A DNA stretch of 64,000 nt from Bryobacterales bacterium (GTDB lineage Bacteria > Acidobacteriota > Terriglobia > Bryobacterales > UBA6623): contig OZ242039.1 in the NCBI GenBank assembly GCA_965205085.1, positions 3,954,277 through 4,018,276 on the forward strand, in the 5' to 3' direction. This document shows, in pieces, positions 34,046-46,399 of the stretch. Both the position numbers and the translations under genes were made by a program. The notes below the pieces were generated by a model. It was not told the DNA's origin, searched no databases, and worked only from the letters and a program-made list of their open reading frames with translations. Positions within the stretch are counted from its first letter, which is position 1, and the number at the start of each line of letters is the position of its first letter.

Positions 34046-34420
34046 ATGGAATCGCAGACTCCCAAGAGACTCCTCGTTGCCATCCCCGACCTGTACTTCG
34101 GATCGAAGGTCTTGGGTGTTGCCCGCCATCTTGGCGTCGAAGTCGAGATGGCAGGGTCGAGGGCTGCAGTTGTGGAGAGGGCCCGGTCGGGCGTGGATCT
34201 GATCCTGGTCGACCTGGATGCGGTCGAAATGGATCCCATCGGGGCGATTCGAGACATCCGGGCCGGAGCCAGCCCTCGGGTAGTGGCTTTTGCCAGCCAT
34301 GTCCATGCCGACCGGCTCGAAGAAGCCAGGGCAGCGGGCTGCGACGAGGTTCTCACGCGGGGCGGGCTCGCGTCGAGCCTGCCGTCTCTGCTTGCACCGC
34401 TCAGATCGCGACCGGAGTGA
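34046..34420 (+). CDS. Receiver-like (CheY-fold) single-domain protein, atypical active site
   Basis: KRLLVAIPDL...DLILVDLD...PRVVAFASH...AGCDEVLTRG has a receiver-like beta-alpha pattern. The conserved Lys position reads H. The 3' end overlaps the glgC 3' end by 20 nt. Confidence 0.5.
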   Translation: MESQTPKRLLVAIPDLYFGSKVLGVARHLGVEVEMAGSRAAVVERARSGVDLILVDLDAVEMDPIGAIRDIRAGASPRVVAFASHVHADRLEEARAAGCDEVLTRGGLASSLPSLLAPLRSRPE

Positions 34421-35654
34421 TCGGAATCGTTGTTCGGGAACCCTCGACGACCACGATTCCGCCACTGGAAACGTGGTATCGATTCCGGTCCGACTCTTCG
34501 TCGTACCCGATCTTGACACCCCGCGGGATGCGAGCGTTCTTATCAATGATCGCCCGCCGGACCTGCGCTCCCGCGCCGATGTGGCAACGGGCCATGACAA
34601 TCGAGTCCTCCACTGTCGCACCACTGTCGATGTAGACGCTTCGGCCCACGATCGACCGAGTCACGGCCGAGCCGTGAAGGACACAGCCCTCAGCCACGAC
34701 CGAGTCGATGGCCTCGCCACCACGGCCCTCGGTGTCGGTGAGATAGCGTGCAGGCGCAGCCGGATACTCGGCAGTCCGCAACGGCCACTGGCTGTTGGAT
34801 AGATTCAGTGCCGGACGAATGGACCGAAGATCCATGTTCGCGTCATAGTAGGCCTCGACCGTGCCGACGTCGCGCCAGTAGCCGTGATTCTCCGGCCGCT
34901 CCCCGGGTACCACGTTCGTCAGGTAGTCGTACGCATAGACGGGCATCTCGCTCACCATCTTCGGGAGCATGTCCCGTCCAAAGTCGTGCCCGCTGTCCGG
35001 CTTGGCCGCATCCCGGCGGAGCTCGCCAACAAGCACCTCCGCATCGAAAATATAGTTGCCCATGGAGGCTAGGCACCAGCCCGGCCGGTTGGGAATCTCG
35101 GGCGGGTTCGCGACTTTCTCGTGGAAGCCCACAATTTGCCAGTTCTCATCAATTTCCATCGTCCCGAACCGGCTGGCCTCCTCGACTCGAATCGGGAGCG
35201 CCGCGACCGTTCCCTTCGAACCCTTGGCGTGGTGGTAGGCGATCATCTGGCGGATGTCCATGAAGTAGATGTGATCGGCACCGAACACCGCGACGGTCTC
35301 CGGCTGCGAAAGCTCGATCAGGTGAATGTTCTGATGGATGGCGTCGGAGGTGCCTTGATACCAGCGCTCCCCCTTGCGCATCTGGGCGGGCACGGGAATG
35401 ATGAACTGGCTGTTCAGCAGATCGGAGAAGTGCCATGCGTTGCGCATGTGTTGCAGAAGCGACTGGCTCTTGAACTGGGTCAGAACGTAGATCGAATAGA
35501 TGCCGGAATTAATGAAGTTGCTCAGCACAAAGTCCACGATGCGATATTTGCCGGCGAACGGGACCGCGGGCTTGCTGCGCTCCTTCGTGAGTGGGAATAG
35601 GCGCGTCCCTTTGCCCCCCGCCAAGATCAGTCCGAGAACTCGTTCGTATCGCAT
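34401..35654 (-). CDS. glgC: Glucose-1-phosphate adenylyltransferase
   Basis: The start at 35654 gives [52 protein letters not shown] left-handed beta-helix forms the C-terminus. Confidence 0.92.
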
Positions 35655-36717
35655 ATGAAATCCGTTTGAGACGGATAAACCAAACTCCCTGCCTAGCCGT
35701 AACTTCAGTATACGGTTCTGGAGCGAGCCCCCCTTCGCGCCCCTACGGCCACAAATCGGATCGCAGCGTGCTGAAGGCTGTGTCGTCGTTCGTGTCTTCG
35801 ACGAGTTCGCATCCTCCACAACGATGAATTTCCGGCATCCGCGGATCATGGCGTGTTTGACGGTGACCGCCATCTTGTTTCGTTCCGGCGGCGTCTGCCC
35901 ACATATGCTCATCTGCTCATCCGGACCTTGCGAACGCCGCAACGAAGAGTGGCATCATTAGCAGTGCAGAGAGGCCACCGGATTCGGTGCAGCAGGACGA
36001 GCCGGCGACGTTGAGTGCTTGCTATTGAAGCAGCCAGGAAGGGAGGCGGTCACAGTGACCGACTGGAATCGGGAGGTGGGGAGCGTGAGGGGCAGCGGGC
36101 ACGGGATGGGAACCGGGGGAACTGAGCGGGACCGCGCTAACGACAGCGGCCGGCATAGGATCGCCATCAGTTCCACCGACCGATCACATTGCACGGCTGT
36201 ACCCGCCAAGTCCCTCCATACCAGCCAGAGTCTGCCCTATCACCTCACTCGCTGGCACCGCAATTGCATGCAGGGGAACGGTTGGGAAGCAACCTCCTCC
36301 AAGACGGGCGTCTCCCGGCCCCTGTGAGTGTTCCTCCGTCACACCTGTAGGCTCGGACCGCTTCCCAAGCAGCCAGCGGCCAAGGTGCCGGGGTCGGCGC
36401 ACACGCCCGTCGGCGCACGGGGCGTGGCGCTGAGGCAGTCCGATACTGCCTGTACCCTGCTCGATCAGGCTTGGTGAGGTTCGGCTTGCGTTCCCAAATT
36501 CGAGGATGGGAGCCAAAAGGATGGCGCGACAACAGTCGGCGAAATTGTCAGGCGGAGAGGGGGCAACCCCGAACTGTGGCACCACCATCAATTGCGAGGC
36601 CGAGTAGTGGGCTATGGCTGAAGCGCGGCGCTCATCGCGCCGCGGGGCAAGGATGTCGGCAAGGACCGCAGCACGAATCTGCGCGCGCAGGCCCGTCAGT
36701 CGGCAGTCGACCAGGCG

Positions 36718-37542
36718 ATGGCGGCCGCCGAGCGTAACAACCCGTCGGTCGACTGCGAACTACTTTGCGACTTTCCTTGGCTGGCCTTGGACAGGCGGCG
36801 GCTCGGCCACATCTGCGACCTCGGCAGCAACATCCGGGCGGACGTCAAGTTCCATGATGTGCTCGTCCTCATCCTCGAGTGCCTCCGGTCGGACTTCGTG
36901 AGCGCTGAGGCCAAGAAGGGTGGCGAGTTCTCAATGGGAACGTCGGCACGGCCAGGGTGGAAATGCGCGTCGACGGTCTCGAGTCCAACTGACCGCCCCC
37001 CGGACTTGCAAGCCGATTTCATCCTCGCTGACCAGCCGGGTCACGTCTCGGACTGGGGCGGTGAGTGGTTGATGGAGAACCAGTGCCGGTGCTGCGGAGT
37101 GCCGGCGAACGACGACGCCAACTTTGCGCAGGTGCAGCACATGGTGCACCATCTGGACCTGGCTGGCGTGGCGTGGAAGGTGCGCGCGAACGGGTCGATG
37201 TGGTCGAGCCACTTGGGCCGGAGCCACCAGAGCGAGGCTGACTTGGTGAACCAAATGGTCGCGCAGGGAAGGGCCATCTCCTCGACGCCGATTGCAGCGT
37301 GCCTGTGGCGTCTGGGACGCCGGCGACCGCCGCGCGGTGAGACCCTGTTCAGCGACGAGCACAGGGCGGGCCGGATGGTTGACGGAATGCTCCGCGTACT
37401 GAACGCCGGGGAGCCGTTCGAGGGTAAGTTGCGGCCGGTGGTCGGGGAGTTGCAAGTGCCGCCGCCGCGAGGGACAACTTGGCGGCCTTGGGCTTTCCGT
37501 TACGCTGGGATGGCTGATGAGACTCGAGTTGACACCGCTTGA
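36718..37542 (+). pseudogene. hsdM: Relic of a type I R-M methyltransferase subunit (hsdM): catalytic motif lost, internal deletion
   Basis: ...AEAKKGGEF (GGEFYTP region), then ADFILADQPGHVSDWGGE where the NPPF motif reads DQPG (37030-37041). Further matches are GVPANDDANFAQVQHMVHHL, ANGSMWSS, SEADLVNQMVA...STPIAACLW and RGETLFSDEHRAGRMVD. Only about 45 aa separate GGEF from the NPPF position, so the AdoMet-binding segment appears to be missing. Confidence 0.7.
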
Positions 37543-37957
37543 TGATGCGATTGCACAGCTTGAGGACGCGCTGGATTATCACGACTCGGACCCGGTGTTG
37601 CGTGACCCGGCTCGCAGGCTGCATCTCAGAGCCGCCGCAATCCAAGCCTTCGAGTTCACGTACGAGTTGTCCTTCAAAATGATCAAGCGCCATCTCGAAC
37701 AGGCATCCGAAAATCCCGCCCAACTCGATGAAATGGGCTTCAACGCCATCCTGCGCGAAGCCTTTCGGCGGGGACTTGTGCAGTCCGAGGTGTCCGCCTG
37801 GAAGGAGTACCGGAAGCTTCGGGGCACGACGAGCCATACCTACCACGGGGACAAGGCTCAGATCGTCTTCGAGGGCATTCCTGCCTTCCTCCAGGAAGCC
37901 CGATACCTCCGGGACCAGCTTCGGCAGAGGAACGAGTCCCTTGACGCCACCAATTGA
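37517..37957 (+). CDS. HEPN-domain protein, HI0074 / nucleotidyltransferase-substrate-binding family (toxin-type partner of MNT)
   Basis: 146 aa with FEFTYELSFKMIKRHL and the Rx4H motif in WKEYRKLRGTTSHTYHGD. The reading frame is intact. Confidence 0.8.
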   Translation: MRLELTPLDDAIAQLEDALDYHDSDPVLRDPARRLHLRAAAIQAFEFTYELSFKMIKRHLEQASENPAQLDEMGFNAILREAFRRGLVQSEVSAWKEYRKLRGTTSHTYHGDKAQIVFEGIPAFLQEARYLRDQLRQRNESLDATN

Positions 37958-39566
37958 CATCCGCCCCGTCGACTTGCGCATCGTCTGGGAGGTGCTGCGC
38001 CAGCATCTGCCTGCCGGCGTGAGAGTCTGGGTCTTTGGGAGTCGCGCGAGCTGGATGACGAAGGACTCGTCCGACCTGGATCTCGCACTGGACGGGAAAA
38101 CCGCGATCCCGCTTAGCAGACTGTCCGCACTGGAGGCAGCGTTCGAGGACTCGGACCTTCCTTACGCCGTGGACATCGTCGACCTCAAGCGTGTCAGCGA
38201 CCGATTCCGACGCCTCGTGCAACTGCAACGCATACCGTTTCCGGCAGCAGAGGAATCGCAGGATCGCGGGAAGTGGAAGGATGTCCCGCTCGACAATCTC
38301 GCTGACATTTACGACGGTCCTCCCGCGACTCCAGGGAAGACCCGGAGGTGCCCGGTTATTCTTGGGATTTCCAATCTCGCTTCCGTGCGTCTCGATCTCA
38401 CGCAGGCAGAGCATCTCCCGGAAGCCGACTACGGAAGATGGATGCGTCGCGTCATGCCCGCGCCGAACGATATCGTGTTCTCCTACGAGACACGCCGTGG
38501 GCGACGAATGGGTTTGATCCGCCCGAGAGACGGAGAAATAGACGCGAGGTATCTGCTGTATGCGTTTCTCGGAGACGGGGTTCAGAACAGGCTGCGGGCA
38601 CCAGCGGTCCACGGAAATACAGTCGACCGGATTCTGCCGACCGAGGTGTCCGGCGTCCCGGTCCGAGTGCCCCAAGCTATCACTGAGCAACGTGCCATCG
38701 CTCAAATCCTCGGTAGGCTGGACGACAAGATCGACTTGAACTGTCGGATGAACGAGACCCTGGGGGCGATGGTGGATAGCCTGTTCCGGTCCTGGTTCGT
38801 CGAGTTCGACCCAGTCCGGGCCAAGATGGTGAGCCGCGACCCGGGGCTCGCGAGGGAGTTCGCCGAGATGTTCCCCGACCGGCTGGTGGATTCGGACCTG
38901 GGGGAGATTCCGGAGGGGTGGGTTGTCGGGACGCTTGGCGACATGGCCGATGCGTCGCGGCGCGGGGGAGATCCCGGGCAAGCCGCCGGCGACACGCCCA
39001 GCGTCGGGCTGGAACCGATTCCGTGTAGGTCGATTGCCCGGACTGATTGGGGCCAGGTCGGGAGAGTTTCGAGTACCGGGACGGTCTTCGAGAATCGGGC
39101 TTCGCCGTTGGGGAAGCTGCGGCCCAGCTTCCCCAGGGCGGGCATCGGCCCCGTGAACGGCGTCTGCCCTGCGGACATTGTGATGCTGAAGGCCCGGAAG
39201 CCGGCATGGTCTGCTTTCGTTCTTGCTTGCGTCTCGTCGTCCGGATTCGTCAGCTACGCGAACCAGACTTCGACAGGCATGCAGATGCCGCGAACCAGTT
39301 GGCGCATGATGAGCAGGTACGAGATGTGCCGGCCCTCCGAACCTGTCTTGGCGGCGTTTCAGCAGATCGTGTCGTCGATGGTGGAGGGAATCGTCGCCAA
39401 TGTTCACGAATCCCGCACGCTTGGCCTTCTCCGGGACACGCTGTTGCCAAGGCTGGTTTCCGGCCAGTTGCGGGTGACGGGGCTGGACGGCTCGAGTATG
39501 CACGAGGACCGTCCTCCTCCACCGGCCGCGATACCCGGAGCCTGCCGGAGCGTCGACCGTGGTTGA
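37941..39566 (+). CDS. Minimal nucleotidyltransferase (MNT, HI0073-like) reading in frame into a degenerate type I R-M specificity subunit (HsdS)
   Basis: MNT part: VWVFGSRASWMTKDSSDLDLAL...LPYAVDIVDL. There is no stop before the HsdS part. HsdS has two target-recognition domains and conserved repeats: EQRAIAQILGRLDDKIDLNCRMNETLGAMVDSLFRSWFVEFDPVRAK and ESRTLGLLRDTLLPRLVSGQLRV. Several normally conserved positions are altered (DGPPATP, LEPIP, KLRPSFPR, VCPADI). The start is taken as the TTG at 37941 and is uncertain. Confidence 0.7.
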   Translation: MTPPIDIRPVDLRIVWEVLRQHLPAGVRVWVFGSRASWMTKDSSDLDLALDGKTAIPLSRLSALEAAFEDSDLPYAVDIVDLKRVSDRFRRLVQLQRIPFPAAEESQDRGKWKDVPLDNLADIYDGPPATPGKTRRCPVILGISNLASVRLDLTQAEHLPEADYGRWMRRVMPAPNDIVFSYETRRGRRMGLIRPRDGEIDARYLLYAFLGDGVQNRLRAPAVHGNTVDRILPTEVSGVPVRVPQAITEQRAIAQILGRLDDKIDLNCRMNETLGAMVDSLFRSWFVEFDPVRAKMVSRDPGLAREFAEMFPDRLVDSDLGEIPEGWVVGTLGDMADASRRGGDPGQAAGDTPSVGLEPIPCRSIARTDWGQVGRVSSTGTVFENRASPLGKLRPSFPRAGIGPVNGVCPADIVMLKARKPAWSAFVLACVSSSGFVSYANQTSTGMQMPRTSWRMMSRYEMCRPSEPVLAAFQQIVSSMVEGIVANVHESRTLGLLRDTLLPRLVSGQLRVTGLDGSSMHEDRPPPPAAIPGACRSVDRG

Positions 39567-39593
39567 TGTTGCCCCCTCGTTCGGGATTGCCTG

Positions 39594-40274
39594 CTAATGT
39601 TGCCGTTCCAGCCTGCCGTCGACGAGTTCCGAGCGACTCGGGAATCGTGCCGCGAGGTCCGCGCTGTGCGTGACGGTGACCAACAGGATGTTGTGCTCAC
39701 GCTGCAGTTCCAGCAAGAGGTCCCCGACCTTCCCGGCGCTGTGCCGGTCCAGGTTGCCGGTCGGCTCGTCGGCAAGGACGACCGGCGGCCTGTTGATCAG
39801 GGCGCGAGCGATCGCTACGCGCTGGCGCTCGCCGCCCGATAGCTCCGAAGGAAGCCGGTCCATCCGGCCCCCAAGGCCCACGCGGTCCAGTAGTTCCAGG
39901 GCGCGGTCGGGTTCGCCAGGCGACGACCCTCGGTTAGGAAGGGTGGGCACCAGGACGTTCTCAAGGCTTGTGCACTGCGGCAGCAGGTGGTGGTCCTGAA
40001 AGACGAAGCCGATACTCCGGTTGCGGAATCGAGCGAGCGAGGCCGTGTCCAGGGAGAAGGGATTCTGACCGCAGATCGTCACCGCGCCAGCGGTGGGCGT
40101 CTCCAGCGATCCCAGGATGTACAATAGCGTGCTCTTCCCGGAGCCGGAGGGGCCCATCACCGCCATGGCATCGCCCCGATCCATGACAAGGGACAGGTCG
40201 TCCAGAATGACCAAGGCTCCGGACGAGTGCGGATATTCCTTGCGCAGACCGCGAACGGATAGATCTGCGGACAT
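39594..40274 (-). CDS. ABC transporter ATP-binding protein (LolD/MacB/FtsE-like), no permease gene adjacent
   Basis: Walker A GPSGSGKSTLL, Q-loop, LSGGERQRVAIARAL and ADEPTGNLD. Confidence 0.9.
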   Translation of the reverse strand: MSADLSVRGLRKEYPHSSGALVILDDLSLVMDRGDAMAVMGPSGSGKSTLLYILGSLETPTAGAVTICGQNPFSLDTASLARFRNRSIGFVFQDHHLLPQCTSLENVLVPTLPNRGSSPGEPDRALELLDRVGLGGRMDRLPSELSGGERQRVAIARALINRPPVVLADEPTGNLDRHSAGKVGDLLLELQREHNILLVTVTHSADLAARFPSRSELVDGRLERQH

Positions 40275-40442
40275 GGCCGGTCGCCCCCTTCTCTACCGAT
40301 TGTTCCACAAGCTGCTCGGTGCGCGATTGAGGTGCTTCTACGGGGTGACCGCGGTAGCGGGACAAGCGTTCTCGGTAGTCCGGCTTGCGCGACTGTGGGC
40401 GGAGACCGGCAGGTCCGGTGTCCGGCCGCCGGAGGAACGCCA

Positions 40443-43124
40443 GTGCTTCTGATCGGGCCTCCCGGCAGCGGCAAGACCACAAGGGTGCTGGACGCTCTTG
40501 AGCGGACAATACGAACCGGCCGGAGCCGCGAGGTCCAGTTGCTCGTCCCAACGGCGAGCATGAAACACCACTTGGTTGCGCTGCTGGCCAGGCGAGGGCT
40601 GATGGTGCCTCTCCACATCATATCGACCATGTCGGAGTTTGTGCGGGACCAAACTCCGGATGTCCGGCCGATCCATGCGGCCGCCGGGGAGAGGCTCCTG
40701 CGGCTGGCCATCCTCCGGACTGCGCCCAGCGCCTTCGGAAAGCAGTCCGGCTCGCGCGGCCTCCGTGCGCGAATCGGAGCACTGATCGGTGAATTCTGGG
40801 CTGCCGGAGCGGACAGCTATGCGGTCGAAGCGGTTGCCCGCAGCCGCAGCCAGCGAGCGTTCGTGACCGTATTCCGAGAGTACGAGGACTCCCTCTCTCG
40901 GCTGGGCCATGTCCACCAGAACCAGCGTATCGCCCAGGCCGCCGCCATGATTCGAAGCGAGGGCCTGCCGGTCCGGGAAATCTACCTTGATGGCTTCGAT
41001 CACTTCACCCGGCAGCAGGAGGAGTTGCTCGAGGCCCTGGCGGAACAGGCGGAGAGGATCCTGGTCGCGCTGCCGGCGGACCTGCCGCACTACCCGCTGC
41101 CGAAGCACCGCCAAACCCTGCTGCCGCCTCTGTCGGAGGGCGCCGCAGAGACCGCAGTGGTCCGGGCAGCGCACCCTCAGGCGGAGGTCATGGAGATCGC
41201 CGCGCAGATTCTCGCCAGCGGTCGTCCCCTGCGGGAGCACGCGATCATTCTGCGGTCGCCCGAACGCTACGAGGCCCTGATTCGAGAAATCTTCGAGAGC
41301 TTGCGGATTCCGCACCGTTTCTGGCTGCGGACAAGGCTGGTGGATCACGGGGTAGCCCGGCATTTCCTCGGCTGGCTGCGGGCAATCGAGCATCAGTTCC
41401 CTGGGGAAGCGACGCTCGAGGCGATCACCTCCCCACTCTCCCCTGCCGAATTCGGCGAGGGCGCGGATTGCTTTGATTTCGCCCTCCGCGAACGGCTGCC
41501 CGGTGATGGGCTGGCCTTCTTTCGGACGGCTGCCAAGGGGCACCCGAACCAGTTGCGCCTGCTCGACCACCTCGGCGATTGCGAACTCTGGCACCGCAGC
41601 CGCCGGGGTGCGCCACGGTGGGGGAAGGAGTGCCTGAAGCTCCTGGAGGCGGTTCTGGAGCTCCGGCCGCCGATCGCGCCCGGGTCTTTCCAGCGTGCCC
41701 GCGACTGGCGGGATGCCAGTGCAGCGGCGAGGGCTGTGCGGGGTGGGATTGAGACTACCGCTGCACTCGCCGAGTTCGAGGGCCGTCGACTGCGTTTCGG
41801 TGTGTTCCTTGAAGCACTCGAGGATGTGCTGAGGGCGACCGAACTCTCCGTCCCCGACCAGCGCTACGATGTGGTGCACATCCTGCCGATCCTGGAGGCC
41901 CGGCAGTGGTCTGTCCCGAGAGTTTTCGTTTGCGGCTTGGCGGAGGGCTGGTTCCCCAGGCGCCATGCCCAGGATTTCCTGTTCGACGACGAGGATCGCC
42001 AGCAACTTCGGGCCCGCGACATCGCGGTGAGGTCCGCGGCGGACCGGGTGGCGGAGGAACGGTTTCTCTACCAGGTGGCGGTCAGCCGGGCCGTGGACAA
42101 GTTGGTGCTTACCTATCCCTGTACCGACGATCTCGGCAAACCGCTGATGAAGTCCGAGTTTCTGGCCGGCCACGGGACTGCCCGGGACGCGGAATTCACG
42201 CAACTGGGCGGCGGCGACGCACCGAATCCGCTCCCGCCGGCTGGTGCACTGCCCGCGGACCTGCTTGCGACGCTGGCCGAACGCAACCGACGGTTCAGCG
42301 TTTCGGGCATCCAGAGGTTCCGGCAGTGTCCCTATCTGTACTTCAGCGGCACCACGCTCGGGTTGCGGGGAAGGCCGGTTCGGCCGGATGATCGGCTGGA
42401 CGCAGCGGTGCTCGGCACTGTCGTCCACGATGCACTGGAGTGCTGGAATCGCGACCGCGGAGAGATCGGGCAGATTCTCGACCGCACCTTCCGCCAGACG
42501 ATGGACCGCCTGCATCTGGGAGAGAGCTTCCGGACCGAGCGACTGCGTCTGGCGCTACGAACGGACCTGTTGCGCTTCGCCGGCGAGCAGGGTCCGTCGA
42601 TGGGGCTGCCCGCTGCCAGTCGAGGGTACTTCGAGCAGGCCAGGAGCTACCGGATCGAGGGCCCGGACCCGCGGGTGGAGATCCGCTGCCGAATCGACCG
42701 CTTCGACGTCGATGCCGGCAAGCGCTGCCTTGTTACCGACTACAAGTACGCCCGGCCGGAGCGCGTGCGGGCCATGATCAACGAACACTTGGCTGGACAT
42801 CAGCTGCAGCTGCTGATCTACCTGGCGGCGCTTGAGCAGGACCTGGGCTTCGAACCGTCCGGCATGGCGCTGTGCGGACTGCGGGGCGAAACCAGCTACG
42901 ACGGTGCAGCCGTCGACGGCCCCCCCGAATTGCGACCGCTGGAGCGCAAGAATCTGCTGGACCTGCTGGCTGCCGCTCGCCATGAAGCGGCCTCGGTGGT
43001 CCGGGCCGTCTTGCGCGGTGAGATCGACGTGGAGCCGAACGACACGGAGTACTGCGGAAGTGCCTGTGCTTTCGGTGGCGTCTGCCGGGTTCGTTGGGAC
43101 AAGTCGGAGGGCCTTGTCAAGTGA
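40443..43124 (+). CDS. AddB-like PD-(D/E)XK nuclease/helicase-related subunit
   Basis: The GTG at 40443 has GGAGGA 6 nt upstream. Motifs are LLIGPPGSGKT, a C-terminal nuclease region (DYKY) and cysteines CGSACAFGGVC. It sits directly upstream of, and is coupled to, the UvrD-type subunit. Confidence 0.85.
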   Translation: MLLIGPPGSGKTTRVLDALERTIRTGRSREVQLLVPTASMKHHLVALLARRGLMVPLHIISTMSEFVRDQTPDVRPIHAAAGERLLRLAILRTAPSAFGKQSGSRGLRARIGALIGEFWAAGADSYAVEAVARSRSQRAFVTVFREYEDSLSRLGHVHQNQRIAQAAAMIRSEGLPVREIYLDGFDHFTRQQEELLEALAEQAERILVALPADLPHYPLPKHRQTLLPPLSEGAAETAVVRAAHPQAEVMEIAAQILASGRPLREHAIILRSPERYEALIREIFESLRIPHRFWLRTRLVDHGVARHFLGWLRAIEHQFPGEATLEAITSPLSPAEFGEGADCFDFALRERLPGDGLAFFRTAAKGHPNQLRLLDHLGDCELWHRSRRGAPRWGKECLKLLEAVLELRPPIAPGSFQRARDWRDASAAARAVRGGIETTAALAEFEGRRLRFGVFLEALEDVLRATELSVPDQRYDVVHILPILEARQWSVPRVFVCGLAEGWFPRRHAQDFLFDDEDRQQLRARDIAVRSAADRVAEERFLYQVAVSRAVDKLVLTYPCTDDLGKPLMKSEFLAGHGTARDAEFTQLGGGDAPNPLPPAGALPADLLATLAERNRRFSVSGIQRFRQCPYLYFSGTTLGLRGRPVRPDDRLDAAVLGTVVHDALECWNRDRGEIGQILDRTFRQTMDRLHLGESFRTERLRLALRTDLLRFAGEQGPSMGLPAASRGYFEQARSYRIEGPDPRVEIRCRIDRFDVDAGKRCLVTDYKYARPERVRAMINEHLAGHQLQLLIYLAALEQDLGFEPSGMALCGLRGETSYDGAAVDGPPELRPLERKNLLDLLAAARHEAASVVRAVLRGEIDVEPNDTEYCGSACAFGGVCRVRWDKSEGLVK

Positions 43125-46100
43125 GGCTGACCGACCAGCAGCGGCGGGCGGTGCGGAGTTGGGAGAGCGGCGACATCTGTGTCGTCGCCGGCCCGGGATC
43201 GGGCAAGACCCGGGTGCTGGTTGAGCGGGTCCGCTGGCTCGTTGAGGATCGCAAGGTGACTCCCGAGCGGGTCCTTGCGATCACGTTCACCGAGAAAGCC
43301 GCCCACGAGATGACGGCCAGGCTCCTGGGCGGTGCCCAGGGCTCACCGGAGCTCCGGCAGAAGTTCGAATCGGTACGGATCTCCACGATCGACGGGTTCT
43401 GCAACCGCCTTCTCCGTGAGCACGCCCTCGACGCCGGAGTCGACCCGGGCTTCGAGATGGTCGGGGAACCCGAGGCGCAGACCCTGCTCTACGCCGCCAT
43501 CAATCAGGTTCTCGACCAGTGCTACCGCCAGGCCCCTGAGGGGGTGCGCACTTTTCTGGCGGCGTACGTTCCGTCGGGGGGGCGCTCGTCCCGCACCGAC
43601 TCCCAGCGTTTGCAGGACGACCTGGCCAGCCTCGTGACCCTGATCCGAAGTCACGGCAGGGAGGGGTTCCTCAGCGATTCACCGGCACCGGTCGAAGCCC
43701 TCGCGGGCGCCCTGCGGGACCTCGCGGACAGCAAAAGGCTTCCGGGCCTTGCGGAACTGGCGGACCGCCTGGACGAGGCCCCGTCCGCTGACGCCGCCAC
43801 ACGGGCCTCGCTGATGGCAGAGGCTGTTCGCGCCACGGCGCCGGTCCGCCGGTCCGGCAGGGTCAAGGAACTGGTCAGCGAGATCAAGGACAGGTTGCTG
43901 CCCGCCTGCATCGCGGCTACCGCCGCAATCCTGCACCGGGAGTCGCGGGAGTGGCTGCTGCGGGTCACAACTCGAATTCTTGGGGCGTTTGGTGAGGCGA
44001 AGATGGCAGCCGGGTTGCTCGATTTTGACGATGTCCTGGCCGGGGCGGCAGCGTTGCTGGCCTCCGAATCGGCTCCCGACATGGCCTTTGAGCATGTTCT
44101 GATCGACGAGTTCCAGGACACCAACCCCCTGCAGATCCAACTCGTCGAGAACCTGCTGAAAGCGCACGGGCGGAATCGTCCGGTTCGTTTCGTCGTGGGT
44201 GACATCAACCAATCGATCTACGGGTTCCGGCATGCCGACCAGAACGTCTTCCGCGAGTACCGGGAAAGTCTTGCAGCCGGCGGCGGGGAGGTGATTCGCC
44301 TGGTCGAAAACTTCCGCAGCCGCAGGGACATCCTCGAGGCTGTGCACCGGATCCTGCCTGGAGGTATGGGCGGCGGTGTCGAGAAGCACCGCCTGACAGC
44401 GGCGAACCGGTTTCCGGAGAAGGCTGAGCCAAGCGTCGAGGTTCACCTCGTCATGGACGGTCAGACGAGTGCGCTCGAGCGGGAAGCCGAGACTCTGGCG
44501 GGCCGCCTGCACGAGCTGAAGGAGACTCTCCGGGTGGCCGACCGGCAGGAGAGCCCCGGGGGTGCCCGACCGCTGGAATGGGGAGACGTAGCGGTCCTCG
44601 TGCGGACCCATGAGCGGGCTGCCCGGTTCGCGGCTGCCCTCCGGCGAGCAGGAATTCCCTGCCGAAGCGCCTCCGCGGCGAGGCTGTTCGACGCTCCCGA
44701 AACCACCGAGTTGGCCGCGTTCCTGCGCGTGGTGCGCAACCCGCGCGACGAAATCAGCCTTGCGGGGACCCTGAAATCACCGTTCTGCGGGGTGGATGAC
44801 ACGGCCTTGCTGCGTCTCAGGCTGGGTGGAGGAAACCTGGCCGAAGCGATCTCGGAAAAGCGGGCGAACCGGGCCGGACTGGACCGCCGCTCGTTGCAAC
44901 GCCTTGCACGCTTCAGGGAGTTGCTCGCTGCCTGTCGGGCTGACCGGGCAACTGTTCCGCCACGTTTCCTGCTGGCGCGGGCGGTACAGTCCTGCGGATA
45001 CCGCTCCTTTCTGGCCGCAAGGGACGAGGGCCCGGACCGCGTCGCCAACGTTGACCGCCTTCTGCAATGGATCGGGCGCAGGCAGGATCAGGGTTCCCTC
45101 AGCCTCGACAGGATCTCCGACGATCTTGACAGAGCCATCCAGGAGGGCCATGCCACCAGGGACGCGGTCAACCAGCAGGGGGTGGACGGCTGCGTCGAGA
45201 TCCTCACGATGCACGCCGCCAAGGGGCTGGAGTTTCCGGTCGTGGCGCTGGCTTCGATGCAGAGTCCGGCAGCAGGTCGGGTTCCCGGAATGCTGTTCTC
45301 GGCGGAGCGGGGCATCGGTGCGCGCTGGGTGGTGCCATCGGGGATCGGCCCGGTCGGCGATGCGGCCTACGAGTATGCGTCCAGGGACGCGCTGGGTCGC
45401 GAGCGCGAGGAGAGCGACCGGCTGCTCTACGTGGCCATGACCCGGGCCGAGGAGCACTTGGTGCTCAGCGCCTCGTTCCCGAAGGGAATTGAGAGGCGGC
45501 ACTGGTGCAAGCCGGTCTTTGACCGGCTTGGGATTGACACGAAGGCCGATCTGCCCGCAGCGCCTGAAGTGCGAACCGCCGGAGACGCTCGGTATGCGTT
45601 ACGTGCCCGAACCGGCATCCCGGGACAACCGGCCCGTTCCGGAAACGGCGAGCGTCCCGGCAGCCCTCGTATTCTCCTGCCACTGGCAGCATCGGCGCAA
45701 ACCGATTACTCGGCGACGGTCACATCCATTACGCTGTTCGCGCAATGCCCTCGCCGCTACTACCTTGCGAGGGTCCTTGCCCTGAATGGGGTCGCGGCCC
45801 GCTTGCGCTCAACCCGCATCCAGCCGACGGTCGGGCCACTCGACCGTGATGGGACGGATGCCTCCACATTCGGATCCGAAGTCCATCTGTTCCTTGCCGG
45901 CCAGTTGACCGATCCCGGCCCGGCAGCACGGCGCTTGGCCGCAAGGTTCCTGGAGCACGAACTGGGGTGCCGGTCGGCGCGGGCTGAGACAGTCGAGAGG
46001 GAAGCGGGATTCGCGTTCACCCTCGGCGACCGTCTTCTGCGCGGCACCCTTGACCTGCTGTTCGAGGAAGGTGGTGAGCGGGTTCTCGTGGACTACAAGA

Positions 46101-46399
46101 CGGACCGCGTGCGTCGCGGCAGCGAACGGGATGCTGCGCAGACGTACGCTGCGCAACTGCAGTTGTACGCAGCCGGTTTGGCGAAAGCGGAGCGGCCGGT
46201 TGACCGGGCGGTGATCTTCTATCTTCGCAGCGGGGTGCCGGTTGACATGGATGTCGGCGCCAGTGCTGTCGAATCCGCTGCGGCCATGGTCGACCGATTC
46301 TTCGAGGCGCAGGTGCGGCAGGACTATCCGTTGCGGGTCGGTTCGCACTGCCTCCGGTGCCAGTACTTCCGCGATGCCTGTCCTGCCCGGCTTGCCTGA
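43121..46399 (+). CDS. UvrD/AddA-type ATP-dependent helicase-nuclease subunit
   Basis: LTDQQRRAV....VVAGPGSGKTRVLVERV, ITFTEKAA.EM, DEFQDTNPLQ, TMHAAKGLEFPVV and a C-terminal RecB-type nuclease (VDYKTD). The GTG start overlaps the addB-like stop (GTGA). Confidence 0.9.
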   Translation: MRLTDQQRRAVRSWESGDICVVAGPGSGKTRVLVERVRWLVEDRKVTPERVLAITFTEKAAHEMTARLLGGAQGSPELRQKFESVRISTIDGFCNRLLREHALDAGVDPGFEMVGEPEAQTLLYAAINQVLDQCYRQAPEGVRTFLAAYVPSGGRSSRTDSQRLQDDLASLVTLIRSHGREGFLSDSPAPVEALAGALRDLADSKRLPGLAELADRLDEAPSADAATRASLMAEAVRATAPVRRSGRVKELVSEIKDRLLPACIAATAAILHRESREWLLRVTTRILGAFGEAKMAAGLLDFDDVLAGAAALLASESAPDMAFEHVLIDEFQDTNPLQIQLVENLLKAHGRNRPVRFVVGDINQSIYGFRHADQNVFREYRESLAAGGGEVIRLVENFRSRRDILEAVHRILPGGMGGGVEKHRLTAANRFPEKAEPSVEVHLVMDGQTSALEREAETLAGRLHELKETLRVADRQESPGGARPLEWGDVAVLVRTHERAARFAAALRRAGIPCRSASAARLFDAPETTELAAFLRVVRNPRDEISLAGTLKSPFCGVDDTALLRLRLGGGNLAEAISEKRANRAGLDRRSLQRLARFRELLAACRADRATVPPRFLLARAVQSCGYRSFLAARDEGPDRVANVDRLLQWIGRRQDQGSLSLDRISDDLDRAIQEGHATRDAVNQQGVDGCVEILTMHAAKGLEFPVVALASMQSPAAGRVPGMLFSAERGIGARWVVPSGIGPVGDAAYEYASRDALGREREESDRLLYVAMTRAEEHLVLSASFPKGIERRHWCKPVFDRLGIDTKADLPAAPEVRTAGDARYALRARTGIPGQPARSGNGERPGSPRILLPLAASAQTDYSATVTSITLFAQCPRRYYLARVLALNGVAARLRSTRIQPTVGPLDRDGTDASTFGSEVHLFLAGQLTDPGPAARRLAARFLEHELGCRSARAETVEREAGFAFTLGDRLLRGTLDLLFEEGGERVLVDYKTDRVRRGSERDAAQTYAAQLQLYAAGLAKAERPVDRAVIFYLRSGVPVDMDVGASAVESAAAMVDRFFEAQVRQDYPLRVGSHCLRCQYFRDACPARLA

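Follow-up and report, generated by a model that had tools for sequence, protein, structure and literature searches.

When a restriction-modification (RM) operon that carries a toxin-antitoxin (TA) module falls into decay, do all of its parts decay together, or can the embedded module persist in its own right? The question is raised by a locus in the genome of a Bryobacterales bacterium (assembly GCA_965205085.1, contig OZ242039.1), within a stretch of 64,000 nucleotides that we call the window and whose positions are used throughout. Here the remains of a type I RM operon include a gene for a HEPN protein, the predicted toxin, followed by a gene in which a minimal nucleotidyltransferase (MNT) domain, the predicted antitoxin, is fused to the specificity subunit HsdS. 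An original prediction made from the sequence had proposed the order hsdM relic, HEPN, MNT plus hsdS, and this order is present at or close to the positions predicted. We consider it probable that what remains here descends from a type I RM operon acquired by horizontal transfer, in which the TA pair has outlived the RM parts and has been kept by selection. The features on which this reading depends are the following.

36509-37517, plus strand: hsdM pseudogene, ~1.0 kb against 1.6 kb for intact genes, in three frames and with three large deletions
37517-37957, plus strand: HEPN gene, intact, 146 amino acids, predicted RNase toxin of the HI0074 / NTase_sub_bind family
37820-37843, plus strand: RX4HXY motif of HEPN, RGTTSHTY (R102-GTTS-H107-T-Y109)
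37941-39566, plus strand: MNT::HsdS, a single gene of 541 amino acids with a TTG start, overlapping the end of the HEPN gene by 17 nt
37941-38255, plus strand: MNT domain, HI0073 type, fully conserved
38037-38084, plus strand: GSx10DxD motif of MNT (G33-S34...D45-L-D47; GSx10DLD)
38169-38183, plus strand: VDIVD of MNT, with the third acidic residue D78
38271-39476, plus strand: HsdS moiety (TRD1-CR1-TRD2-CR2), frame open, sequence eroded
38493-38498, plus strand: junction of an in-frame 13-codon deletion in the core of TRD1, with the break at 38495/38496

An intact pair beside eroded RM genes

The HEPN protein matches Pfam NTase_sub_bind (E 1.2e-28), TIGR01987 HI0074 (81.4 bits, exceeding the cut-off of 55.8) and PDB 1JOG (E 1e-25). 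It has a single domain and no N-terminal ABC-ATPase, and so is not of the PrrC type. Across 36 homologues, H107 of the RX4HXY motif never varies, and the conservation of R102 and Y109 is 90% or higher. By analogy with characterized relatives, R102 and H107 are predicted to be the catalytic residues of an RNase and Y109 the acceptor of AMP.

The public gene call (541 amino acids, TTG start at 37941) is identical in sequence to MNT::HsdS, and the best homologues of the protein share 45-56% identity with it over 94-97% of its length. The 17-nt overlap with the HEPN gene is the same in the related loci L002-L005, L086 and L087. The MNT domain matches Polbeta (E 6.8e-8) and PDB 1NO5 (E 7e-14), and scores 31 bits against MntA_antitoxin NF047752, under the equivalog cut-off of 60.

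To measure erosion we took the 120 best homologues of HEPN and of MNT::HsdS and scored the window at each column on which 90% or more of the other sequences agree. Three of 66 such columns are changed in HEPN (4.5%), a count within the family range (median 1 for other members, with 27 of 119 having at least three), and none of 26 in MNT (other members median 0.5, maximum 4). The RGTTSH motif of HEPN and the GS...DLD motif of MNT are intact, as had been predicted. In HsdS, 50 of 202 columns (25%) are changed. The difference between HEPN plus MNT (3 of 92) and HsdS is significant (Fisher P = 2e-6), and it holds between MNT and HsdS inside one polypeptide (Fisher P = 0.002).

Decay of hsdM and absence of hsdR

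Intact HsdM proteins of related loci were aligned to the DNA in all frames by tblastn, which gave the following map of the relic.

36509-36649, plus strand: HsdM residues 4-43, in a frame that differs from that of residues 67-191
36605-36607, plus strand: in-frame TAG within this N-terminal fragment (residues 4-43)
36625-36930, plus strand: HsdM residues 67-191, with three internal gaps
36931-36990, plus strand: 60-nt scar in place of HsdM residues 192-283, AdoMet-binding motif I included
36991-37401, plus strand: HsdM residues 284-425
37030-37041, plus strand: DQPG replacing the catalytic motif IV NPPF (ILANPPF to ILADQPG)
37446-37505, plus strand: HsdM residues 507-526 (the last 20), in a third frame
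37515-37517, plus strand: original hsdM stop TGA, overlapping the HEPN ATG (TGATG junction)

The original prediction had recognized an hsdM relic at 36718; the relic is real, but it starts at 36509, ~200 nt further upstream. The open reading frame (ORF) at 36718-37542 (274 amino acids) has a Pfam N6_Mtase match limited to profile positions 113-258 of 311 (E 2.5e-8), and PADLOC MTase_I identifies it as a type I methyltransferase fragment (E 7.5e-26). The alignment to intact HsdMs bears out both of the lesions that had been proposed, DQPG in place of NPPF and the missing AdoMet-binding segment. The scar at 36931-36990 keeps a vestige of HsdM residues 237-255, in yet another frame, residues 426-484 are deleted, and the reading frame changes no fewer than three times along the relic. 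Among 35 intact HsdMs, 148 columns show conservation of 90% or more; the relic departs from 55 of them (37%), whereas other members depart from a median of 2 and at most 15. This hsdM is a true pseudogene. We considered sequencing error as a source of its lesions and rejected it given the large deletions, the ~50% amino-acid divergence and the intact flanking genes.

The absence of hsdR had also been predicted. A tblastn search with a 1046-aa HsdR and a 530-aa HsdM of the same family (E up to 1e-2) found neither hsdR nor a second hsdM within the 64-kb window. A functional type I RM system requires an intact HsdM with motif I and NPPF, which is lacking here, and HsdR, which the window does not encode.

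Erosion of the HsdS moiety

HsdS has retained enough of its sequence to match PADLOC Specificity_I (E 2e-67), and its match to Pfam Methylase_S (E 0.046) lies under the cut-off. The changed columns are distributed over both target recognition domains (TRDs) and the first of the two conserved regions (CRs): 23 of 86 in TRD1 (other members median 1, maximum 7), 10 of 46 in CR1 (median 1, with one other member also at 10) and 17 of 60 in TRD2 (median 1, maximum 8). CR2 has none of 10 changed (median 0, maximum 3). The count for TRD1 includes the 13-codon deletion, where the family sequence SYETRLGEAALIPxGLRACLGRRMGL has become SYETR|RGRRMGL. Other radical changes are DGPHATP to DGPPATP, LFGKLRPYFHKVGIAP to PLGKLRPSFPRAGIGP, and LGTLDDKIELNRRMN to LGRLDDKIDLNCRMN. 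Change at normally invariant positions of hsdS, as proposed from the sequence, is therefore found at 50 of 202 conserved columns and in the 13-aa deletion. The HsdS frame of 436 codons nevertheless contains no stop and no frameshift, in contrast to the several frame changes of the hsdM relic. The HsdS moiety is at least strongly relaxed.

Selection on the window branch

For each gene or domain we estimated omega (dN/dS) on the branch leading to the window from three-taxon Nei-Gojobori distances, a simple counting method with few taxa. The dS to the nearest loci is unsaturated (0.45-0.8). For TRD2, comparisons with loci that carry non-homologous TRDs were dropped and dN/dS was recalculated from L087 and L001, whose TRD is of the window's type.

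HEPN has an omega of 0.13-0.18 on the window branch, over a branch dS of ~0.45-0.55, compared with 0.14-0.26 on reference branches. The corresponding values for MNT are 0.26-0.42 and 0.15-0.32. Higher values on the window branch were obtained for TRD1 (0.39, reference 0.15), TRD2 (0.50, reference 0.17) and CR1 (0.68 to >1, a noisy estimate; reference 0.15-0.42), and CR2 gave ~0.2 over a short stretch (n=30). The hsdM relic reaches 0.57-0.76, compared with 0.09-0.13 for intact reference hsdM. Protein identities tell the same story: at equal HEPN identity, MNT identity is 0.75 between the window and intact loci and 0.76 among intact loci, whereas the identity of the window hsdM (0.48-0.56) falls under the minimum of all intact pairs (67-70%).

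Purifying selection thus acts on HEPN and the MNT domain with the strength seen in intact loci. A simple mixture estimate suggests that hsdM has been a pseudogene for ~60% of the window branch, and that HsdS has either been unconstrained for ~30% of it or partly constrained throughout. Profile and conservation analysis show a disabled hsdM and an eroded hsdS beside an intact HEPN and MNT.

Insertion of the island

The operon remnant lies in an island between two genes of the opposite strand.

34401-35654, minus strand: glgC, left flank, start at 35654
35723-39593: island between glgC and the ABC-transporter ATPase gene, ~3.9 kb, genes on the plus strand
35723-36508: left part of the island, no assignable gene
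39594-40274, minus strand: ABC-transporter ATPase gene, right flank, stop at 39594

In the two closest relatives by glgC (L088 and L089, with glgC identities of 88% and 86%), the neighbourhood of AddA, AddB, ABC ATPase, glgC, MqnA and a HEAT-repeat protein is shared, and the spacer between the ABC ATPase gene and glgC is 44-47 nt long. Homology to this spacer adjoins glgC in the window and ends at ~35722. The island is therefore an insertion into the short ABC-ATPase/glgC spacer, made after the split from the nearest sequenced relatives. Its GC content is 0.634, against 0.647 for the window, and no target-site duplication was evident by eye at its borders. Given a window-branch dS of 0.28-0.46 in the flanking genes, there was time enough for near-neutral change in hsdM, and decay in place after acquisition is plausible.

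Within the left part of the island, weak similarity by tblastx to sequence 5' of the relatives' hsdM in the fetched loci extends from ~36380 onward; the ~650 nt before it (35723-36380) gave no tblastx match to any fetched locus. The six ORFs of the left part have no Pfam match. A scan of 35.5-40 kb yielded no Rfam match and no useful terminator, and no sigma-70-like promoter was recognised there. On the right, 27 nt separate the stop of MNT::hsdS from that of the convergent ABC-ATPase gene, and immediately beyond this gene comes an AddB/AddA-type helicase-nuclease pair (40332-46399), arranged as in L088 and L089, which is ordinary conserved synteny.

The operon family

Approximately 100 of the best 120 homologues of MNT::HsdS are proteins of 510-580 amino acids with Polbeta and Methylase_S domains, and one PADLOC Specificity_I model takes in the MNT part. 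The MNT-HsdS fusion is thus an ancestral and widespread architecture, and not a product of decay. Where related loci were annotated or their ORFs inspected, hsdM, HEPN and MNT::hsdS are tightly packed into one operon whose stop and start codons overlap as in the window, and hsdR follows directly after MNT::hsdS or after 1-6 kb of cargo (DUF4365, DUF6978, YopA-like, HicB-like).

We surveyed this family by a HEPN-seeded scan of GTDB species genomes, which returned 80 loci; with four related loci and the window the set comprises 85. Full hsdM, MNT::hsdS and hsdR are present in 40 loci, and L087 is likewise canonical. A further 10 have full hsdM and MNT::hsdS, with hsdR partial or beyond the flank, 14 are stand-alone HEPN+MNT pairs, and a further set of loci is partial. 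The hosts are mainly Acidobacteriota (Vicinamibacterales, Bryobacterales) and Chloroflexota (Dehalococcoidia), and some belong to Gemmatimonadota, Latescibacterota, Dadabacteria and Gammaproteobacteria. A large share of the hosts of L006-L085 are sponge-associated metagenome-assembled genomes (MAGs; RHO, SB, IRC and APA bins) of Acidobacteriota, Chloroflexota, Dadabacteria, Gemmatimonadota and Latescibacterota, and the module may be enriched in sponge symbionts.

MNT, fused to HsdS or not, lies just downstream of HEPN in all surveyed loci but L023 (tblastn, that stretch only). The HEPN-first order is therefore a hallmark of the clade and not a local inversion. On a plasmid of Acetobacter ascendens (L091, NZ_CP021525.1, 3990-10795) the order is hsdM-HEPN-MNT-hsdS-hsdR, with abutting genes and an unfused MNT of 105 amino acids, and such an arrangement is a plausible precursor of the fusion. 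Some genomes, those of L005 and L001 among them, carry two HEPN-MNT units within a single RM island; in L001 (4871-11620) the arrangement is hsdM-HEPN-MNT followed by a Schlafen/AlbA_2 ATPase, a second HEPN and MNT::hsdS.

Decay in other loci

Automated calls of decayed or partial loci were partly artefacts of TRD divergence and contig ends; real cases are L002, L005, L023, L052, L053 and L066. HEPN has been kept despite decay in L002, L005, L053 and L066, and in L003 and L004 an insertion sequence (IS) element cuts hsdR. Decayed loci are scattered over the HEPN tree, and we therefore regard the decay events as independent. L002 and L053 have differing internal deletions in hsdM and MNT::hsdS, an absent or truncated hsdR and a full-length HEPN with its motif. 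All of the hsdM and MNT::hsdS deletions in these two loci (L002, 9186-11708; L053, 9163-11072) are in frame to the natural C-terminus, which is unexpected for random decay; coupled translation along the operon, or some residual function, may be the reason. In L005 (9387-18721) a 5'-truncated hsdM-HEPN-MNT::hsdS cassette lies beside a complete second hsdM-HEPN-MNT::hsdS.

Two loci, L034 (9995-10754) and L043, consist only of HEPN (149 amino acids) and an MNT of 109 amino acids, which stops at the linker; the surrounding genes are housekeeping genes. These stand-alone pairs share the TTG start and the overlap of the fused genes and are nested in an RM-linked Chloroflexota clade of the HEPN neighbour-joining tree. 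They are probably an end state of RM loss. The proposal that the TA module has outlived the defence system is in this way supported by the erosion of conserved columns, by the branch dN/dS and by the comparative series.

Discussion

The data indicate that an RM operon of the form hsdM, HEPN, MNT::hsdS, hsdR entered the ABC-ATPase/glgC spacer, that hsdR was then wholly lost and hsdM decayed to a multiply disrupted pseudogene, and that constraint on the HsdS portion of the fusion was strongly relaxed. The surviving pair probably works as a type VII TA system. In such systems of Legionella, the tyrosine of RX4HXY is the AMP acceptor and MNT neutralises HEPN (PMC11586414), and the same AMP transfer and neutralisation are established for Shewanella HepT/MntA (SO_3166/SO_3165; PMC7641770). 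By analogy, a HEPN dimer would act as an RNase via R102/H107, and MNT would neutralise it by transferring AMP to Tyr109. MNT would be retained given that its loss would free active toxin, and a spotless MNT inside an eroding protein is what we would expect because loss of MNT is counter-selected when active toxin is present. Such addiction does not protect the toxin gene itself, and the omega of ~0.15 that HEPN has kept over a long branch therefore suggests that the pair is still useful. The benefit would most likely be abortive-infection defence or a stress response (stress-induced growth arrest), and the HsdS stub would persist because it is tolerated as an appendage or because it serves MNT as a stabilising scaffold.

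Several points weigh against this reading. Toxicity, AMPylation and expression are extrapolated from sequence-distant relatives only (HEPN matches the Legionella protein at E 2e-7), and no promoter is recognisable upstream that would serve the pair after the decay of hsdM. A trans-acting hsdM or hsdR may sit elsewhere in the 5.67-Mb genome. Partial constraint explains the open HsdS frame better than decay alone would. HEPN was the seed of the survey, which is thus biased to loci that retain it and is silent on which order of loss is the commoner. Nor does the TA pair survive in every case: in L023 (9400-10776) MNT is deleted and HEPN is eroding at conserved sites, with a second HEPN of the 137-aa type upstream, and in L082 (10001-10279) HEPN is truncated after residue 93 and hsdM and hsdR are of full length.

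The original prediction had offered as an alternative that the RM-derived proteins were repurposed as non-catalytic scaffolds. For hsdM this fails on the stop codon and the frameshifts, but for HsdS, the frame of which is unbroken, it retains some likelihood. The HsdS part could stabilise, oligomerise or regulate MNT, with the whole 541-aa protein acting as the antitoxin, a possibility that we regard as real if unlikely. It would account for a 436-codon frame that has stayed open despite erosion, for which simulation gives a probability of no stop of 0.02-0.04 at a neutral divergence of 0.10-0.12 substitutions per site. It would also fit the fact that the sole large HsdS indel is in frame, that CR2 is unchanged at all 10 columns, that the TRD omega of 0.39-0.50 is intermediate and not neutral, and that the MNT::hsdS deletions of L002 and L053 also keep the frame to the C-terminus. 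However, the simulation does not include GC-biased mutation, which would slow the appearance of stops, and a later onset of relaxation would yield the same intermediate omega. GC-rich DNA keeps long ORFs open by chance: a 587-aa antisense ORF at 37740-39503 (minus strand) is a GC-rich shadow ORF that spans nearly all of MNT::hsdS, and long open frames in this genome are therefore weak coding evidence. The 109-aa stand-alone MNTs of RM-linked ancestry in L034 and L043 indicate that MNT does not need HsdS.

A related possibility concerns the intact family. The fusion of MNT to HsdS may wire a type VII TA system to the methylase/restriction complex, so that attack on the M2S complex, its titration or its loss would release a HEPN guard, and the HsdS stub in the window would then be a retained antitoxin scaffold. 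We put this forward tentatively, as less likely true than false. If it is true, the family would provide a backup by abortive infection, comparable to PrrC but assembled from wholly different components.

Could MNT::HsdS still be a working specificity subunit, for an hsdM and hsdR encoded elsewhere in the genome, with only the local hsdM dead? Orphan or extra hsdS genes that share a methylase are common, the HsdS ORF is open, and the truncated cassette of L005 sits beside a complete second system. Against this, CR1, the region that contacts HsdM, has 10 of its 46 conserved columns changed where the median is 1, and the domains that would read the target are changed at 23 of 86 (TRD1) and 17 of 60 (TRD2). 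The changes in these domains place prolines in the conserved GKLRPYFHK strand, the core of TRD1 is 13 residues short, and neither hsdM nor hsdR is found within 64 kb. We judge a functional specificity subunit improbable.

We give about as little credence to the original reading of HI0073/HI0074 applied to this pair, in which HEPN and MNT would not be a TA system but a two-subunit nucleotidyltransferase acting on another substrate, as an accessory enzyme of RM. The NCBIfam name "nucleotidyltransferase substrate-binding subunit" reflects that reading, and the toxin-first order is unusual for MNT-HEPN dyads, in almost all of which MNT occupies the 5' position (PMC3710099). However, RX4HXY is kept, with H107 invariant and R102 and Y109 at least 90% conserved, the Legionella HEPN-MNT, a detectable relative, is a proven type VII TA system, and the pair persists without an RM partner both here and in stand-alone loci.

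That the whole locus is dead, and HEPN and MNT merely small targets not yet hit, is hardly credible: together they span only ~740 nt and no promoter was detected, but at the erosion rate of HsdS (25%) ~23 of their 92 columns would be expected to have changed where 3 have (P = 2e-6), and HEPN has held an omega of 0.13-0.18 over a branch dS of ~0.45-0.55.

Relation to known systems

If the TA pair has indeed outlived its RM operon, its nearest characterized counterparts are type VII systems. Like HepT/MntA, it consists of adjacent overlapping genes with RX4HXY in HEPN and GSx10DxD in MNT, and homology to the Legionella pneumophila HEPN-MNT (PMC11586414; PDB 8XDJ, 8XEH, 8XEO) is detectable (HEPN E 2e-7, MNT E 8.5e-4). 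Unlike HepT/MntA, the pair in the window, which is known from sequence, has the toxin gene first, its antitoxin is the N-terminal domain of an HsdS, and it was born in an RM operon. The closest solved structures by sequence are HI0073 and HI0074 of Haemophilus influenzae (PDB 1NO5, 1JOG), although HI0073 is a free-standing protein of 114 amino acids. In FhepTA, a single-chain MNT-HEPN of Shewanella (PMC13000451), the MNT is likewise fused to a partner, but the partner is its own toxin, whereas in the window MNT is fused to HsdS and the toxin is separate.

It is already established that TA and abortive-infection modules occur inside type I RM loci, as in PrrC, DarTG2 and RM-linked HEPN clades, many of which have been described (PMC3710099). 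PrrC of EcoprrI, an anticodon nuclease held latent by a type IC system, resembles the family described here in being a HEPN RNase encoded inside a type I RM operon. It differs in having an ABC-ATPase domain and no MNT partner, and in being masked by the RM complex itself. The pair in the window has a dedicated enzyme-type antitoxin and is an RNase pair that survives without the RM system; the physical link of MNT to an RM subunit suggests RM-coupled control. DarTG2 in a type I RM system of enteropathogenic Escherichia coli (EPEC; RRDM island, PMC12255303) is also a TA system nested in an RM operon, but with separate genes between hsdS and hsdR. Nesting of further defence genes within RM, BREX or Hma systems is described in bioRxiv 10.1101/2024.01.29.577857. 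The passages searched in these two papers do not mention fusion of an antitoxin to HsdS, and we found no description of the MNT-HsdS fusion or of the hsdM-HEPN-MNT::hsdS-hsdR operon in the literature searched. Databases label the fusion "restriction endonuclease subunit S".

The locus can be regarded as a natural experiment, in which selection has been turned off for the RM parts and left on for the TA parts, even within one polypeptide. It lends quantitative support to the view that a TA module can survive the defence system in which it is embedded and can be under selection of its own. The architecture of hsdM, HI0074-type HEPN, MNT::hsdS and hsdR is widespread in Acidobacteriota, Chloroflexota and other phyla, including MAGs of sponge symbionts, and it is found on a Zymomonas plasmid. 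It makes the coupling of RM to an abortive-infection RNase directly testable in culturable hosts.

The plasmid in question, pZMOB01 of Zymomonas mobilis ATCC 10988 (L090, NC_017180.1, 3-5154), carries HEPN, a 527-aa MNT::HsdS and hsdR. Its HEPN is of the HI0074 type, and its MNT::HsdS is annotated merely as "restriction endonuclease subunit S". We also considered whether HsdRMSp of Z. mobilis ZM4 (PMC8432527) is an MNT::HsdS system, in which case its viable hsdSp deletion would have spoken against toxicity; its primers have no match on pZMOB01, and we set it aside as irrelevant. The HsdRMSp locus lies on pZM32 (L092, NZ_CP023716.1, 25525-31622) and is a plain hsdR-hsdM-hsdS system (HsdS of 420 amino acids) without HEPN or MNT, unlike the system on the similar-sized plasmid of ATCC 10988.

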